Below, one piece after another: positions 32,256-64,000 of a stretch of 64,000 nucleotides of DNA. Source of the DNA: Eledone cirrhosa (taxonomy: Eukaryota). The position numbers were made by a program, and so were the translations under genes. Below the pieces are notes generated by a model. That model was not told the DNA's origin and made no database searches. It saw only the letters and a list, made by a program, of their open reading frames with translations. Location of the stretch: assembly GCA_964016885.1 (NCBI GenBank), contig OZ024741.1, forward strand, positions 271,746,001 through 271,810,000. The letters are read 5' to 3'. Every line of letters starts with the position of its first letter. Within the stretch, counting starts at the first letter, position 1.

Positions 32256-34292
32256 TAATAATAATAATAATAATAATGAAATTATTGTGTACAGTGCTCA
32301 GGTGCACTACAACTCATCAAAGGTGCATGTATAGTACATAGAATAATGTACAAATGTCAGGAAAATAAACAGTGTATGAGTCATGATATAATAACAATAA
32401 CGAAATATTGTGCACAGTGCCCAGGTGCACCACAACTCATCAAAAAAGTGCATGTACAGTACATAGGGCAATGCACAAACATCAGTAAAATGAACAGTGC
32501 ACGAGTCATGATACACACATGTGTGCATGTGTATGGAAGGGGTACATCAGGTGTACTTTTGGCGTATTTTGGGAAGCATGAGTGTCTTAAAGGATGCAGT
32601 GTCTCGGCAGCTAACAATTGACGCAGGCAGTTTGTTCCATGCTTCAGTAACTCTGAGCGTGAAAAAATGTCTGCGAAAGTCATGGGAGCTGTGCTGTTTT
32701 CTTATCTTGTAGGCATGTCCACGTGTGTTAGACACATGGAGATCAAAGAGGCGCTCAGGGTTGCAGTTGGCGAGATGGTTAAAAACTTTGTGGGTATTCA
32801 CCAAGTCCATTGCCAGACGTCGGAGCTTCAATGAATCCATGCCCAGGGAAGCAAGGCGTTCAGAGTATGGTAGGTGTCTGATGGAGGGTATGCGCTTGGT
32901 TGCACGTTTCTGAACAGTTTCCAGGAGGTCAATGTTCCGAGCAAGATAGGGGTTCCAGACTGATGATGCGAATTCCAAGTGTGGTCGCACCATAGCTGTA
33001 TACAGTTTTAAATAGATGGCTGGAGAGCGGCTAACAAAGGTCTTGCTGAGTGATGCCAAGACACCCTCGGCCTTCTTGACAATCTTAGAGACATGCTTTG
33101 TCCAACGCAAATCGTTGCTGACAGTAATGCCCAGGTCATGTTCACAAGAGGACTTTTGATGTCAGTGTTGTGGAGGGAGTATGTGGACGCTGGATTTTTC
33201 CTTCCAAAATGCATGGTGGTACACTTGTCCACAGCCAGCTTCAGTTGCCAGTCTGTGATCCATTGCTGCATTGTGTCCAGGTCTGATTGTAGGAAAGAGT
33301 TGTAAATTTCAGGATCAGTCCTTTTGATTTCAAGGTACAGCTTGATGTCATCTGCATATTTTAGTACCGTGGCATTCTGTAAGTTGGCATCTATGTCATT
33401 AATATATGCCACAAACAAAAGAGGACCAAGAACAGATCCCTGTGGTACACCAGATGACATCTCATATGGTGAAGAATGCTGTCCTAGAACCGTGACTACT
33501 TCCTTTCGGCTGAGAATGAAGGATTTCAGCCAGTCGAAAAGATCATCCCTCACACCCATTGCAGAGAGTTTTGCCATAAGTCTTTTGTGTGGCACAGAAT
33601 TAAAAGCCTTAGCAAAGTCAAGGTAAACAACATCCACCCATGAGCCGCTGTCAGTGATCCGGGTGATGTCCTCAAGAAACTCGATAAGCTGATCACAGCA
33701 GCTGGAGTTAGGGATAAATCCAAACTGTGAGGGCCGGATGAGGCTGTGAGAGCTCCAGAAGTTCCAAAGTGTTTCTCTGACACAGGATTCCATCAGTTTG
33801 GCCATACAGCTAGTAAGACTGACTGGACGATAGTTGACAGGTGACATGCGGTTGCCCTTTTTGAACAGGGGAATGACACTGGCAGTTTTCCACTGCTCCG
33901 GAGTAGCACCATTGCTGAGACAGTATTGAAAGAAAAAAGAAAGCTGGCACAAAAGGAAATCCCCGCCACGTTTGAGAAGCAGGTATGTCACACCATCAAG
34001 ACCAGGGGAGGCATAGTTGCGCTTATTCTTAAGGTGACGTCGCAACATTGCAGGTGTAAATTCCATAGTTGTTATGGAATTTGATGTTAGAGATGGTGGA
34101 GATGGTACATTCTGGTCCTCAACAGTAAAAATACTTGCATAGCACTCAGCAATGAGTTCTGCGCATTCCTTGGGATCGTCAGTGATCTGGCTTGTGTGGG
34201 GATTGCGAAGAGGACCAACTGGAGAGTGAGGTCTCTGCTTTGAATGAACATATTTCCAGAACACCTTACTGTCAAGATTGGTTGCGATGCAC
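32256..34292 (-). mobile_element. 5'-truncated CR1-clade LINE (RT + C-terminus, one frameshift, (ATT)n tail) in LAPTM4 intron 1
   Basis: NYRPVSLTS, YLDFAKAFNSVPH, SGVPQGSVLGPLLF, YADDIKL, RPHLEFASSVWNPY, TRGH...RHFFTLRVTEAWNKLP. Two ORFs are joined by a 1-nt frameshift near 33155. Confidence 0.95.
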
Positions 34293-34649
34293 TGTTATAT
34301 ATACATATATATGCGTATATTCATATATATAAACAAGGTTTAGTAAATAATGAAAAAGTTTCAAAATAATATGTATATATATATATGCATTACGTATATT
34401 CACATCTACATATTCACATATGTAAATTAAAATATATTTTATTTACTTAAGAGGTGTATAAATAACATTGCAAATAATTTTAAAAAGAGAAAGAAAAAGG
34501 AAAGAAAAAAAGAAAGAGAAAAAGAAGAAAAAAAACAAGCAGATAGTACACACATCTAGGACCACATATAACAAAGGGCAGGCGAAAGAGGTGGACAAAC
34601 GAGCAGCTACCGGAGCAAAAGATAATATAGCAAGGGGCATTGGGAAATC

Positions 34650-38575: not shown

Positions 38576-39146
38576 TTGGCAGTGTGCATAGCTCTGAGGT
38601 CTTTTTGTAAACTGTTTGTGGTCAATAAAGAAAATATTATTATTATTATTATTATTGGCATCAGTCGGTCTTGAAAACACCATGAATCTGCTGCTGAAGA
38701 ATTTTGTTTTAGTTGCCGGTGGCTGTGCAGTGTCTGCTGTGGCTGTACAGGCACACACAGGAGTGGCAGTCCTGTATACAGCAACTGCATTTGAAGATGT
38801 TCTCCTCCAGTGCTACTGTATTGTTCTATTTTTGAACACGCTTTTAATAATAATAATATATATATATATATAATATATATATATAGATAAGTATGCACAC
38901 GTACACACATATATATATATATACACACATATACTGTATATATATATACACACATATATATATATATACACATATATATATACATACACATATATATATA
39001 TACATACACACATATATACATATATAGGTATGGGTTATACCGAACAATAATAATGTTCGATTCATTTATAAACAAACGACCCAATTTGAAGCTGTGCCGT
39101 GCTGGTGACTGATCGTCACCTGTTTATTCAACACTGACTTTGAGGA

Positions 39147-39189
39147 ACAATCAACATGTTTCTGGGTCATTACCCTTCATCAGGACTGT
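39147..39189 (-). ncRNA. Minimal type I hammerhead ribozyme motif within an about 250-bp non-coding element (39030-39270)
   Basis: ACAGUC-CUGAUGA-A-GGGU-AAUG-ACCC-A-GAAA-CAUG-UU-GAUUGU: 6-bp stem I, 4-bp stem II, palindromic stem III, GUU triplet. Confidence 0.75.
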
Positions 39190-40074
39190 ATACCTCTGCC
39201 AATCTGTTGAAAATATATAGTAGCTGAGTAGCTTCATTTGCATACCAAGCGAGTTACGGCTGGCCTTGCCAAATCGGCTGAGTAGCTTCATTTGCATACC
39301 AAGCGAGTTACGGCTGGCCTTGCCAAATACTAAAAATAAAATAAGAATTTTATTTCTCGCTCTAGTACAGCTGATACATCATCATCATCATCATCATCAT
39401 CAACGTTTAACGTCTATCTTCCACGCTAGCATGGGTTTAAATGGGAATTGTCCTACTTGAGGCAAGATTGGTCAGGTGACCATGTCTCGCTCATATAGGG
39501 CTGTCTGTAAGTATGCACACGTACACGTATATATATATACATATATATATACATACACACACACATATGTACGTATGGGTTATATCGAACATTAATAATA
39601 ATGTTCGATTCGTTTGTAAACAAACGGCCCAATTTGAAGCTGTGCCAGTGACTGATCGTCACCTCTAGCTGTGCTAGAGCAAGAAATAAAATTCATGGAG
39701 GCACATGGCTTAGAGCATTGGGCTTGCAATCGAAAGGTTGTGAGTTCAATTCTCAGACCGGGTGATGTGTTGTTTCCTTGAGCAAGACACTTTATTTCAC
39801 ATTGCTCCAGTTTACTGAGAGATAGAAATGAGATGATAGAACTGGGGTCCATACCATTCCACTGTAAAGTGGACGTGTAGGCACCACGGCAAAAAAGCAC
39901 CCAGCACTCACTGTAAATGAGGTTGGTGTTAGGAAGGGCATCCAGCTGTAGAAATCAAGCCAGAATCAGTTCCCATCCCACCCTTGAAAGCAGGGAAAAG
40001 CAGACGTAAAATGATGATGATGATGATGATGATATGTGTGTGTGTGTGTATGTGTGAAGACCTGCCTTCACATG

Positions 40075-50014: not shown

Positions 50015-50201
50015 TTTACTGAAATCCAACATATATATATATATATAAGTCAAAATCTGAACATATAAGAACAGACACAACAAAATAGACAAACTTTTAT
50101 TTTGTTAGCAATCTACTGCATTATATATGTACACATTATGCATGTGTGTGGGTGAAAGTATATGTATATATATATTCATTTATTAAAGCTAAATAATGAG
50201 A

Positions 50202-50248
50202 CTTGTTACTCTGGAGTTTCACCTGTTATCACAGGGTCATCAGACAAG
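50202..50248 (-). ncRNA. Minimal type I hammerhead ribozyme motif (left arm of inverted repeat 50172-50344)
   Basis: CUUGU-CUGAUGA-C-CCUGU-GAUA-ACAGG-U-GAAA-CUC-CA-GAG-UA-ACAAG: 5-bp stem I, 5-bp stem II, stem III, GUA triplet. A mutated mirror copy lies at 50266-50313(+). Confidence 0.78.
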
Positions 50249-50518
50249 AACATTGAATTTTTGTCTTTGTCTGATGACCATGTGATAAACAGGTGAAACT
50301 CCAGAGCAACCAGACTCACTTTTTTAGCCTTAATAAATGAATATTTAAACACTATTTCAGTATTGCCACATACATATATCCTATAGGAGCCGTTTCTATA
50401 TTAAACTTGATGTTTACACACACTACTAATATAATATATTGAGTACCTTACTAACTTTGGTTTCATTTTCAAATTCTAATTGACATCTTCTAAACCACAT
50501 GTGATCTGTTTACACACA

Positions 50519-51814: not shown

Positions 51815-53968
51815 TATGTATGTAGATCCCAAGTGTAATCGGAGAGGTAACCACAATTAAAAAAGGTTACTCAATACATTAGTAGAGTGTAAACTTCATT
51901 ATCTAATATATAGATTCCTGATGATTTAATAGGAATGAAACGGTTCTAGTTGTGTAGAAACCATTTCTAGATTAAATGATATACATAGATACAGATATAT
52001 ATATGTATACATATAAATATGTGTGTGTGTGTGTGTATACATATACATACAGGGTATGTATATTGTATATGTGTGTGTGTGTTAATCATGTACTTATTAT
52101 TATTATTATTATTTATCATCATCATCATAAAGAAATAATTATTATTAATGTTTTAAAGTAGAGCACAAGGTCTTTGAAATATATTTGAACTCTAGCTTTT
52201 CTGCCAATCCACTGCCCTAAATAATGGTTTCTGATCTAGGCACAAGGCCAGCAATTGGGGGGGGGGGGGGGGTCGATTAAATCAACCCCAGTGTATTACT
52301 GATACTTTATTTTATCGACCTTGTAAGGATGAAAGGCAAAGCTAACTTCAGCTGGATTTGAACTCAGAATTTAAAGGGCCGTGACTATATACCACAAAGC
52401 TTGTTGTTTGACACTCTACCGATACTGCCAATCCAACCTTGTAATAATAATGATAATAATAATTGTTTCTACTTTAGGCACAAGGCCAGCAATTACCCAG
52501 TGCATTACTGGTACTTTATTTTATCGACCCCGTAAGGATGAAAGGCAAAGTCAACCTCGGCGGGATTTGAACTCAGATCGTAAAGGGACGTAACTATGCT
52601 GGAAAGCATGGCGTCCGACTCTCTACCGATACTGCCAATCCAATTACTAATATAATTGGTAATCTGAAAATAGGGAAATTGAAAAAACTAGACCTATTAC
52701 AACAACAACAAAAAACATTCTTGTATTTCTAATAAAATGTACTGTCTGTGTGTCTTAATTTTGAACAATAACAGAACTTAAGATAACTTTCTTCATTTTA
52801 AATAAATGTTTGGAACATTATTTAACAAAAATGTTTTAAATATAATTATGATGGACATTTTTAAATGGACAGTTTTGTATCAAAACCAAGGGTAAAAAAA
52901 AATAAAATGAAATGAAATTTTCCACTCATACCTATATGCAGGTTTAGCTGGCCTCATACAAGGTTACATTCCATAGGAGGTTTCTCAGGTGTTTTAATGA
53001 TAGTTGGAACTGTCCTATCATGAAAAGCATTGACAAATTAAGTGTCTTGCTTAAGAACACAATATTCTGCCTCTATTTGAGAAATCAAATCCATAACCTC
53101 ATGATTATGAGTCCAACACTTTAACCACTAGGCTACATGTGGGTTAGTATCAAAAACGGGGTTAAATAAATAAACAAATTTAATTAACGTCAATATTTTT
53201 GCTTTGTTTTGTTGTTTTTCAATCATTTCTTTCCTTCTTCAATCATTTTGAAAATAAAAAAAAAAATAAAAAAATTAAAATTATTAAATTGAAAAGGAGA
53301 AAAAAAAAAAATCAAAATATATTAAGAACAAAATTATAATTCTTTTATAAACATTTAACTTCAAAAGAAAAAAAATAAATGAAAAAAAATTAATGAAAAT
53401 TTTCAAATGTTTCATTTTTTTTCCCTTGCAAAGTCCAAGTCTTATTTTTTTTTTATAATTTGATTTTTTCCTTTTTTTTTTAAGCCAATGAAATGAAAAA
53501 TAGTTTCATATGGTTGTTTTTTTTTAAATTTTAATATTTTTGTGTTGTTTTAGTTAGTATAGCTGTTTTGTTTGTTTGTTTGTTTGTTTGTTTTTCTTCT
53601 TTATGTCACTGTACTACACACCACACCACACTGCAGCACAACACCATAACACCACCACCAATAACCACATCATACCAAACCAAACAAGCATGTCTGTCTC
53701 TCCTCAAATTAAGATGATACAGAGAAAGAAAGAAAGACAAAAAAAGGAAGTAATAGAGAGACAAAGAAAGAGTGAGAGAGAAAGAGACAACTGAATGATT
53801 GGAAAGAGTGGGGAAGGTGGAGGTACAGTAGCAGTGAGGTTGAGATGAACTTGGGGTCATTGTTGTTGTTGTTTTGGTATTTATATTTTATATTTTTCAA
53901 AGTAGGAGCTGATTGATAGTCCTGGCAAGAGAGATACATGGTAGAGAATGAAACACACTTCACACAGT

Positions 53969-55597: not shown

Positions 55598-55735
55598 CAT
55601 GGGTATAAATGTCATTTGTATTGTACAGAATAATACATTAATAAAGTATAGGGCTTACGAAAAAGAATCATCTAATTTCAAAAAGCTATATTTTCTTTTC
55701 ATATGACTTTTTGAAATCGGATGATACTTTTTGAT

Positions 55736-56048
55736 ACACACCATTTTATGCTTGTATAATTGTCAGTAGTAATAAAACACTTTTATCCTTTGGATAAGAA
55801 ATAACATTGTTTATAATTGGAATCTAGTGCTATTATCTTTGATTAAGGTATGAAGTTAGTTATTAAAACGGTAGTCAAATTGGTACTTCTAATTTAACTA
55901 CACTTTTAATAAATAACTTTATATCTTGATAAGTCTCATCAAAGACAATAACACTAAATTCCACTTATAAACAATGTTATATTTTCTTATCCAAGGGATA
56001 AACAGTGTTTTATTACTACTGACAATTATACAAGCATAAAATGGTGTG
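55736..56048. repeat. Imperfect inverted repeat (about 110-bp arms) in a C6orf62-like intron
   Basis: CACACCATTTTATGCTTGTATAATTGTCAGTAGTAATAAAACAC... mirrored by ...GTGTTTTATTACTACTGACAATTATACAAGCATAAAATGGTGTG. Confidence 0.85.
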
Positions 56049-56079
56049 TGTGTATGTGTGTATACATATAAACATGTGT

Positions 56080-59000
56080 ATCATCATCATCACCGTTTTA
56101 CGTCCGTTCTTCCACGCTAGCATGGGTTAGACAGGTTGTCCTGTTGTGGGCAGTGTCTGGTCGGCTGACCATGCCTTGCTCATACAGGAACTGATTTGGC
56201 TTGATTTCTACAGCTGGATGCCCTTCCTAACACCAACCTCATTTACAGTGAGTGCTGGGTGCTTTTTCGTGGCACCTACACGTCCACTTTACAGTGTGGG
56301 CTGGGTGCTTTTTTGCCGTGGCACCTCCACGACCACCTTGCGGTGGGGGGTGTGGGGGCATATTGTCTATATGCTTCAGCTTGTACCCATGGGAGGTCGG
56401 GTACTCTGTATTACTGCGGGACGCCAGAAGTCACGGTCGTGTGTCATTGTCTTTGAAAGGTGTAATTGGGTAAGGTCGGCTTTTATCACCTCATCCCAGG
56501 TCTTCTTGGGTCTCCCCACTCTGCGGTTTCCATCAACTTCTAGTGCTCTGCACCTTTTTATGCAGCTGTCCTCCTTCATACGCATCACATGTCCATACCA
56601 GCGCAATCGCCTCTCCTGCACACAGCATTTGATTCCTCTTATGCTCAGTCTCTCTCTCAATTCATTTATGCTTTGTCGTTCACGTATATTACTATTACAC
56701 ATCCATCAGAGCATGCAGGCTTCGTTTCTCTCTAATCTCCGTAAGTCTTCCACCTTCAGCGCCTAGGTCTCACTACCATGCAACATCGCTGTTCAGATAC
56801 ACGCATCATACAGTCTGCCTTTCATTCTGAGGGAGAAGCCTTTTGCAGCTAGCAGTGGTAGTAGTTCCCTAAACTTCTTCCATCCCGTTCTTACCCTAGT
56901 TATTGTACTTTCTGAACACCCACCTCCACTGCTAATTCGGTCACCTAGGTAGCAGAAGCTGTCTACTGTTTCTACAGGGCCCTCCCAGAGATTGGTGGTA
57001 CTTGTTTCCTGTGGCTGTTTGCTGCTTGCTGTCGCAGCACAGCTGCTGCATGTGAATCCTACATTCTTAATTAAGCTTCCTGAGATCCCGCTACATCTCT
57101 TGTGTACCCATTGTTTGCATTTGGGGCAGAGAATGGAGTTCCTACCTACACCTTTCCTACATACTGAGCAAGGCCATTTCCCTGAGGGGATCTGGGTTCT
57201 GTTTTCTCGTCTACTTACAAGGACCTTAGTCTTTGTCATGTTGACTTTGAGACCCTTTCTTTCTAGTCCCTGCTTCCAAGTTTGGAATTTATTCTCTAGT
57301 TCTACCATAGATTCAGTAGAGTGGCTTACTTTTAGCTAGGTACTTTTCCTGTAATTGCCTCACAAGGAAGAGGGCATCAGTGGTGCCTCTTCCTGGTACA
57401 AACCCAAATTGCATCTCGTCTATTTTCACCCGGTCCCTAATCAGCTGTGCTATAACTCTTTCTGTTACTTTCATGACCTGGTCCATCAACTTTATACCTC
57501 TATAGTTTCCTCTATCTAGTGCATCGCCTTTACTTTTGTAGCAGTTGACAATGATGCTACTGCACCAATCTTTTGGTATGGCACCTTCTAGTATTACCTG
57601 GTTAACGATACGTGTGGTTATAGTGTGACCTACAGACCCAGATGCCTTCAGCATCTCGGCAGCTATACCCGATGGACCGGTTGCCTTCCCCATCTTCATA
57701 TCTTTGATTGCGTACTTACTACGCTGCTGCTGACTTGTACTGCTGGTCCCTCTATAGGGTCTACTTGGGGTAGGGTCTCTTCTTCCCATGCATTCTCCCC
57801 ATTTAGTAATCTATCATAATGACTCTTCCATGCATCTTTCTTCTCAGCACTTGTGAGGGCAAGCTCACCTTTATCATTCCGGATACACTTCTCTCCAATG
57901 ACATCACAACTATCTCTGACACACTGCCTCGCAATCTTGAATACCTCCTGTTTCTGGTCCTCACGTTGCAAAACATGCTTGAATTTTCTATCCTCTGCTT
58001 CCCTCCTAGCTAAGTATACTTGTCGCCTAGCTTCCCTCTTGGTCTCTATGTAATGTACCCTGCTCCCCCCGTTCTTCCATTCTTTCCATGCCTGTCTCTT
58101 GGCCTTAACTGCTTCATCTACCTTATTGTTCCACCACCAAGTCACTCTCCTCCTGCTTGAGGTCTTACTCCAGCCACAGACCTCATCCATCGTCTCTAGT
58201 AAATTATTTTTTAGGAATTCCCAGTTCTCTTCTACATTAAATGTCTCTATCTGTTCTTCTTTACTGTCGTAGGCTTTGAGTAAAATATCTTTAAATCTGT
58301 TACTGGTTGAGGGGACTTTCAGCTTCCAGATCTTTCTTCTCCAGGTTGGCCTCTGTTTCCAGGTTCGTCTAGTTCTGACTGTGAGGTCGCTGACAACTAA
58401 GCTATGTTGGGATGTACATTCCTCACTAGGGAAGGCTTTTGTGTTTACGACCGTCCATCTGTCACGTCCTCTGGTGAGGATAAAATCTAACTGACTAGAG
58501 TGCTCCCCTGATCTATAGGTGATCAGGTGGTTGTCGGGTTTTTTAAAGTTTGTGTTACATATCGACATGTCATTGGCGTCGCAGAATTCTAGAAGTCTGA
58601 ATCCTTCCTCATTCCTTGTGCCAACCCCATGGCCTCCATGTACTCTATTGAAGCCGTCGCAGTGTTTACCTACGTGTCCGTTAAAATCTCCTGCGATGAT
58701 TAGGAAGTCATTGTCGTCTGTTAGAGCAGTAGTGTGCATTAGGGATTCGTAAAACCTATCCTTAAGTTCGTCTGACAGCCCCGATTGGGGTGCGTAAGCT
58801 GATATTATTGTGGTAATTGTTTTATTCAGGACTAGTCTGAGTTTAATGATTCTTGCATTTACCCTGTACACTGAGATCACTTTATCTACCCACTTGTCAG
58901 CTAGTAGTATACCTACACCACCCATCCCATCGTCATTTCCCACCCACAGAAAAATTTGTAGCACCGACTTTTTCCTACGAGGACTCTGGCAGACTCTCCT

Positions 59001-60197: not shown

Positions 60198-60257
60198 TTG
60201 TGGTATGTAGAGACAGAGGCTACACAGTTTGAAAATTACTACTTGGGTGTTGCTGGT
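60198..60257 (-). CDS. C6orf62: C6orf62-like gene, penultimate exon
   Basis: atttcag|TSNTQVVIFKLCSLCLYIPQ|gtaagt; 60 nt, phase 0/0; matches the recalled IFKLCSICLYLPQ motif. Confidence 0.92.
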
Positions 60258-63150: not shown

Positions 63151-63288
63151 TTGAATAACATGTTTATCCACAAACAGGAACATTGACTGTTCGGCATTGC
63201 TGATGATCAATGCTGACTTCTGGTTGCGAATTGCCACTAGATGGAGCAACTGTTTCTCATATTCATGATGTGAAAATTCAAAGACAGT
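63151..63288 (-). CDS. C6orf62: C6orf62-like gene, third-last exon (earlier exons lie beyond the window)
   Basis: ttttcag|TVFEFSHHEYEKQLLHLVAIRNQKSALIISNAEQSMFLFVDKHVIQ|gtaggt; 138 nt, phase 0/0; matches the recalled FEFHHGDYEKQFLH...QSVFLFID. Confidence 0.92.
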
Positions 63289-63735
63289 CTGAAAATTTCA
63301 AATTGGATACTTTGGTTATAATTTTTTTAAATTTAGATTTGAAATGTGTCCATCCCAACGCAAATGACCATAATAATAGTTGATCATACACACACACATA
63401 TATATATATAAATAAACGTAAGTATGTATGTATACGTACATACATATATGTATACAGACGTACAGTAGCATGTATATATATATATATATATATATACATA
63501 CATCTGTATACATATATGTATGTACGTATACATACATACTTACATTTAAGTAAGTGCCATACTAAGAGTGAGAAATTAAATTAAATTTCATTTCATTCTA
63601 TTCCATTCCATTTTATCGTTTTCGGTGTGCCTGGCCGACTGAACTCACTCGATATGCAAATTAGGCTGCTCAGCCGTTAATTTTCATAAGGAAAGTATAT
63701 ACTTTCGAACGTTCAACCATCTGGCAGAAGGGTAT

Positions 63736-63778
63736 ACGGTGCTGACGATAGCTAACAAGCTTGAAACTAGTACATCGT
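63736..63778 (+). ncRNA. Minimal type I hammerhead ribozyme motif within an about 270-bp non-coding element (63630-63895)
   Basis: ACGGUG-CUGACGA-U-AGCU-AACA-AGCU-U-GAAA-CUAG-UA-CAUCGU: 6-bp stem I, 4-bp stem II, palindromic stem III, GUA triplet (cut after 63772). Confidence 0.82.
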
Positions 63779-64000
63779 TCCTGTGTCAGTGTTGAACAAA
63801 AAGGTCACGTGGTTGCCTTAACACCGTACGGCATAAATCAGGCTGTCCGTTTGTTTACAAACGAACAAAGCGAACATTATAATAAATGTTCACTAAACTG
63901 ATACGTACATATATATACGTGTGCCTGTATGTATATATATATATATATATATACATGCTACTGTACGTCTGTATACATATATGTATGTACGTATACATAC

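Follow-up and report, generated by a model that had tools for sequence, protein, structure and literature searches.

A hammerhead retrozyme in a C6orf62-like intron of Eledone cirrhosa with an insertion footprint that points to Penelope-like machinery

The locus described here lies at the right end of a 64,000-nt window of Eledone cirrhosa DNA (GCA_964016885.1, contig OZ024741.1, positions 271,746,001 to 271,810,000), within a C6orf62-like gene read from the minus strand. Exon 5 of this gene (C6orf62/DUF4566, 46 codons) occupies 63151..63288 (-), its limits being set by splice signals and phase. Of the five minus-strand exons matched by PF15130 (DUF4566), one lies in the window and the other four follow shortly past its right end; a sixth match is found elsewhere on the contig, and a further exon lies near 60,200. 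In intron 4, which precedes exon 5, an insertion extends antisense to the gene from 63413 to 64068, its left end 124 nt from the splice acceptor at 63289. The antisense intronic position proposed in the preliminary description is borne out by the minus-strand DUF4566 exons on both sides, whereas the limits given there (63440-64000) fall short of the actual ones, the right end lying 68 nt past the window.

The insertion is built of two arms of one repeat unit. On the left, 63398..63411 is what remains of the targeted (TA)n tract; it is followed by a left inverted arm of 90 nt of the unit at 63413..63502 (-), with its outer 3' end at a position of the unit termed site A. The right arm (566 nt, ~1.24 units) occupies 63503..64068 (+), running past the window to a second position, site B, and then into (TA)10, so that TA runs lie outside both ends of an insertion that holds 1.24 units in this arm and a single ribozyme. 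The 'tail' between A and B (~60-66 nt) occurs twice, first inside the arm at 63544..63613 (+) and again at ~64008-64068. The AT-rich self-complementary microsatellite segment of the unit, with its variable TA run, lies at 63901..64000 (+), and site A follows it at ~64008. A very high-copy tRNA-like SINE-type repeat begins right after the right TA run, from 64,089 onward (L001:2030-2370). The inverted words reported earlier are present, a 25-nt word at 63451 in the left arm having its reverse complement at 63951 in the microsatellite segment, and both belong to a 69-nt perfect inverted pair; they do not, as was supposed, bracket the element from its flanks. Both words are part of the repeat unit itself, the left one lying in the inverted second arm, and so they are not terminal repeats.

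The right arm carries a type I hammerhead with an extended helix I at 63711..63796 (+) and its core at 63742-63772, recognized by motif reading, folding and covariation. Sequence reading places CUGACGA at 63742-63748, GAAA at 63763-63766 and the GUA triplet at 63770-63772, a CUGANGA, GAAA and NUH arrangement around three helices whose open helix I makes it type I; cleavage is predicted between 63772 and 63773. These parts, including the predicted cut after 63772, are those first described, and the outer stem is likewise as first given (63711-63796, MFE -25.4 kcal/mol, z -1.98; reverse strand, z 0.17). Proximal helix I pairs 63737-63741 with 63773-63777, with two outer helices besides; helix II occupies 63750-63761 (+), the GAA, by sequence reading, 63763-63765 (+), and helix III 63766-63771 (+), which reads as the palindrome ACUAGU. 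To call this core canonical was nevertheless an overstatement: position 10.1-11.1 at the base of helix II is U-U rather than G-C, and helix III consists of one pair closed by the palindromic loop CUAG (dimer type). Rfam gave no hammerhead hit in the window at the gathering score and none among 74 matches when relaxed to E values up to 5; its miRNA matches in the window were set aside, as they sit on AT palindromes with scores far under gathering. The minimum-energy fold draws the core out of its active shape (~-13 kcal/mol for the active fold vs -25 kcal/mol, tertiary contacts being left out of both), and RNA cofolding predicts a dimer barely better than two monomers, in a register other than the active one, and is thus of no help in judging activity.

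Conservation of the stems was assessed on an alignment of 19 copies, drawn from the present family and from an older family represented in the window by copy A (see below). In this alignment 96.4% of the cells are paired, a value that drops to 23-41% in slid registers, and both-sided changes occur in 7 of 25 pairs, located in helices I and II. The covariation score was reached by none of 500 shuffles, with the proviso that the alignment comprises essentially two families plus subfamilies and hence few independent events. The helix III palindrome itself varies as a palindrome between families, from CUAG to CAUG. To judge by these compensatory changes, the hammerhead is real.

Both weak features have precedents among retrozymes of the axolotl (PMC7229834): helix III resembles that of HHR_Amex1, likewise one pair with a palindromic tetraloop, and the U-U at the base of helix II resembles HHR_Amex2, described as a variant that still cleaves. 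A helix III of this kind is reported to support weak cleavage as a monomer and good cleavage as a dimer (PMC4209133; PMC7229834). Cleavage by the present copy at its present site appears doubtful, since it is a single dimer-type ribozyme on a strand that the host gene does not transcribe, and tandem arrays are, on sequence grounds, the likelier active sources. Thus, the copy cannot be placed first for activity, as had been suggested: it has a dimer-type helix III and no second ribozyme, and its core recurs identically in thousands of copies, many of them in tandem arrays.

Its rank as the best-formed ribozyme of the window is also debatable, given two other families found there. Copy A, at 38,880-39,630 (minus), has the better z-score (-3.16), though with a GUU triplet; it is a member of a related but older family, for which 1,801 candidates were found (the best others ~90% identical), and shows A-A at the base of helix II, a CAUG loop, the same site A motif and an internal 54-nt duplication. 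A third family, at 50,150-50,345, forms a head-to-head pair of minimal type I hammerheads whose cores lie at 50243 on the minus strand and at 50271 on the plus strand, with a 5-bp helix I, a 4-bp helix II and a longer helix III than that of the present copy; the minus copy has GUA and contests the same rank, and the plus copy carries a core change. This pair looks like another Penelope-type two-armed insertion. Hammerhead-core-like motifs at 51918 (+) and 49915 (+), which resemble sequences near Penelope-like loci (L065; L039 and L073), are probably decayed members of other families. The window additionally contains a 36-nt tandem repeat (46 copies at 94% identity, 1-1653) and frames judged by eye to be LINE-type RT and endonuclease-like, the longest having 436 codons, at 32,547-34,294 and 55,700-59,000 (minus).

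A position so close to an exon raises the question of whether the host has adopted the ribozyme, or the structure around it, to regulate the C6orf62-like gene, or whether selection against cleavage has fixed its orientation. The splice acceptor 124 nt away, the capacity of the arms to pair as a 70-90 bp duplex in the pre-mRNA and the depletion of retrozymes from Xenopus introns described in a preprint (bioRxiv 10.64898/2026.07.22.740005) would fit such a role, which we nonetheless consider very improbable: with 95-96% identity to many other copies the insertion is young, and its single dimer-type ribozyme lies on the strand that the gene leaves untranscribed. The related suggestion that antisense orientation spares the host transcript is weakened by the presence of cores on both strands in 18 of 49 sampled clusters, 21 of the 49 holding a single core. 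The present copy is an intron passenger that, being antisense, is unable to cut the host pre-mRNA.

The copy is an ordinary single member of a large family. Across the whole 3.0-Gb genome, to which all copy counts refer, exact matches to a 31-nt ribozyme core number 13,428 (6,809 on the forward strand and 6,619 on the reverse), and the control yields none; for a 341-nt core, at least 3,373 candidates were obtained, and the best 40 scored among them are 94-97% identical to the present copy. In the present subfamily the unit is ~455 nt long, low in GC and non-coding, and includes the AT-rich self-complementary segment. Tandem spacing is ~420-540 nt, arrays reach ~10 units, and unit length is near constant within an array and differs between arrays. 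Coverage of the unit by contigs from sequencing runs is deep in organism A and weak in organisms C and D. A non-coding, low-GC unit of a few hundred nucleotides, with one hammerhead each and copies in tandem, is what defines a non-LTR retrozyme, and no ORF was found in or attached to the family copies at 66 loci, which speaks against an autonomous Penelope-like element. The family is a new one of a known class, the retrozymes; the literature that we searched yielded nothing on it or on end-pairing in retrozymes, and Repbase or Dfam may already hold its consensus.

The manner of insertion was examined at those 66 loci, namely 19 taken from the best hits of the 341-nt core and 47 loci covering the first 100 exact cores of the largest contig, from which overlapping loci were dropped (e.g., L005, which overlaps L007). 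The 66 loci yielded 113 arm alignments. Site B terminates 55 of them and site A, ~60-66 nt upstream of B, another 46; the remaining 12 stop at other points, for the most part a locus edge, an interruption or the inner TA run. TA repeats follow most arm ends, in keeping with a bias toward (TA)n insertion; both A and B continue with 2-4 nt matching the TA repeat, and site A lies within a small predicted stem-loop. Genome-wide, B followed by TA has 1,378 matches (one subfamily form only) and A followed by TA has 2,288 (with variable gaps, some counted twice), whereas a control taken from the middle of the tail and followed by TA has 4 matches at 2 places vs 14,558 tail copies. The ends of several other repeat families recur at the same TA tracts (L004, L008, L012, L016, L020, L115, L116, L118, L120-L123 and L131), which suggests that these tracts are shared landing sites for many elements.

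The two ends are distributed over the arms by a strict rule. Two arms, certain or probable, were found at 42 of the 66 loci, 33 of which could be scored at both ends; 32 of these 33 have one A and one B end, the exception (L009) being B+B. The nine unscorable loci are L014, L100, L108, L114, L121, L126, L134, L135 and L146; L135 had been labelled A+A by the script and was excluded because its left arm stops in an inner TA run, and when it is retained as A+A the count becomes 32 of 34 (binomial p 3.5e-8 vs even odds). A duplicated insertion (L118) was entered once. A second tally, of opposite-strand neighbours at most 3 kb apart among the 61 B and 80 A ends listed for the first 117.5 Mb, gave 13 A+B pairs, one A+A and no B+B; all pairs are head to head, and one of them (L112) also belongs to the first sample. 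One B+B pair occurs further along the genome-wide list of B ends, beyond this tally. Likewise, strand switches of up to 1.6 kb among the first 100 cores comprise 18 head-to-head and no tail-to-tail cases, with 2 tail-to-tail switches at 1.6-2.5 kb.

These ends decide against the view, suggested by the 69-nt perfect inverted pair at both ends of the present copy and by the TA target context, that the element is MITE-like, its hammerhead having been captured by a DNA element with terminal inverted repeats. The inverted arm ranges from 0.1 to >6 units across loci, many loci have one arm, so that no constant terminal inverted repeat exists, the two ends differ, being A and B, and the units stand in direct tandem. 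We regard this explanation as largely refuted and its residual probability as negligible. What the loci display instead is the combination seen in Penelope-like elements: a partial tandem with a head-to-head, inverted and 5'-truncated copy, a tail at one end and two fixed 3' ends.

The inner, 5' ends of the arms behave differently from the outer ones. They are spread over the unit, a distribution affected by the selection of the 66 loci for a whole core, and fall within 5 nt of the cut site in 2 of the 113 arms. Near-perfect fold-back junctions number ~4 (L110, L132, L140, L148), most junctions joining unequal 5' points, and inspection of the 66 loci by eye gave no clear excess over chance of B arms stalling at site A. 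At all 7 two-armed loci carrying a distinct subfamily, that subfamily is found in both arms (aligned at >=94%), the other two subfamilies being too alike for such scoring. Divergence within insertions has a median of 0.8%, no different from nearest-neighbour divergence between insertions, so a single template is not demonstrable from it, nor does it discriminate a circular template from a multimer.

It could be argued that the element is the same and that its arrays and inverted arms formed after insertion, by unequal crossover of a satellite or by fold-back repair at AT-rich palindromes. Such an origin has been proposed for vertebrate retrozymes in a preprint that prefers local tandem amplification (bioRxiv 10.64898/2026.07.22.740005), and in the present family the long AT-rich palindromes of the unit and the few near-perfect fold-back junctions would be consistent with it. 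Fold-back would not, however, give the inverted arm a fixed end of its own, A in place of B or vice versa, and most junctions have the unequal 5' points noted above. We therefore hold a post-insertion origin to be unlikely, if better placed than the other alternatives, while later changes of unit number inside the arms are possible.

The reading that we favor, with a probability of roughly 0.85, is that the insertion is a young, ~455-nt, protein-free hammerhead retrozyme, likely copied from RNA and put into (TA)n by a Penelope-like RT-endonuclease acting in trans. The involvement of Penelope-like machinery is suggested by the footprint of a tail at one end, with one A and one B end per insertion, and the youth of the copy by its identity to many others. 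Background on these elements is concordant: Penelope-like elements are described as having partial tandems, an inverted 5'-truncated copy, a tail at one end and a bias toward microsatellites and (TA)n (PMC8557442; PMC3846280), and the origin of their inversions and tails is given as open (PMC8557442). Purified Poseidon protein is reported to cut and extend both AT-rich strands in vitro and to begin reverse transcription of uncleaved RNA at two internal positions, one on either side of the tail, with no need for ribozyme activity (PMC11167929). Additionally, Penelope-like elements have been proposed in print as 'a strong candidate' for retrozyme mobilisation, and a link between the two has been drawn from co-occurrence and phylogeny (bioRxiv 10.64898/2026.07.22.740005).

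On this Penelope-like reading, tandem arrays would be transcribed, their ribozymes would cleave in dimeric form, and ligation may turn the monomers into circles. The enzyme would then cut a (TA)n target on both strands, and each of the resulting ends would prime a cDNA, one starting at B and the other at A, the 2-4 TA-matching nucleotides at both sites permitting weak primer pairing; the two cDNAs would stop at random 5' points and be joined head to head. As arms cross the cut site, the template would be a circle or an uncut multimer and not usually a cleaved monomer. More tentatively, and at somewhat less than even odds, each two-armed insertion may be the work of one ribonucleoprotein, in which two Penelope-type RTs prime at the staggered, non-interchangeable sites A and B of the same circular retrozyme RNA, one per cut (TA)n end, and circle around it to produce multimeric head-to-head arms. 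The strict A+B pairing, the shared subfamily at 7 of 7 loci, the spread of 5' ends and the array-specific unit length are what suggest this version.

Candidates for the enzyme are plentiful. The genome holds ~10,600 GIY-YIG candidates, among them intact-looking ORFs of up to 938-1096 codons in which an RT is followed by a C-terminal GIY-YIG, with a Cys-rich linker that would be of the Neptune kind, a clade name given by motif alone. A coding partner sharing the unit as a pseudo-LTR was not found in 50 GIY-YIG loci, representing at least seven families, out of the ~10,600, the 3' ends of these loci having a weak AT-rich resemblance to the unit. L054 and L071, two loci with full-unit hits, were rejected as coding partners because the unit copies appear to be separate insertions. 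Several abundant Penelope-like families have long RT-GIY-YIG frames (L060, L062, L063 and relatives). The hammerhead of the L063 family has U-U at helix II and a palindromic helix III, and an apparent tail of ~60 nt in this family runs out into TA repeats. In the L060 family, CUGANGA is replaced by CAGAAGA.

Three described systems come closest to the family. As in the metazoan non-LTR retrozymes of Cervera and de la Pena (2020; PMC7229834), a short, low-GC, ORF-less tandem unit carries a type I hammerhead and exists in thousands of copies, its 455 nt lying at the upper end of the 150-450 nt given for that group. Unlike the retrozymes of that account, it has a variable (TA)n segment of its own and unites both weak features in one ribozyme; inverted arms and tails do not appear in the main text of PMC7229834, which does report expression and circles, whereas the family here is known from DNA. 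With endonuclease-bearing Penelope-like elements such as Neptune and Poseidon, as described in PMC8557442, PMC3846280, PMC11167929 and PMC4209133, it shares partial tandems, the head-to-head inverted 5'-truncated copy, a tail confined to one end, 3' ends fixed at two positions, (TA)n as the target and a hammerhead within the repeat. It differs from them in being ORF-less, in its tail of ~60 nt vs the 30-40 nt of that literature, and in that the whole unit acts as a free pseudo-LTR, with no sequence-sharing parent in the 50 loci. The vertebrate retrozymes of bioRxiv 10.64898/2026.07.22.740005 likewise occur as monomers, dimers and multimers, with intronic copies, and the preprint reaches the same conclusion on origin; its evidence is vertebrate co-occurrence and pLTR phylogeny, where ours is an insertion footprint in an invertebrate-type genome, and this footprint points to arrays made at integration, unlike the view taken there. 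The one-A-one-B rule in a retrozyme and the presence of arrays in both arms were not found in the literature that we searched and are, relative to it, new.

The enzyme that mobilises animal retrozymes has only been proposed in print, and the insertion ends described here supply a direct and countable footprint. If the two arms of each insertion are indeed made by one ribonucleoprotein on one circular RNA, that model would explain the Penelope 'tail', the head-to-head inversions and the arrays of retrozymes together, and the family would offer thousands of natural events, along with a 455-nt substrate, on which to test it.
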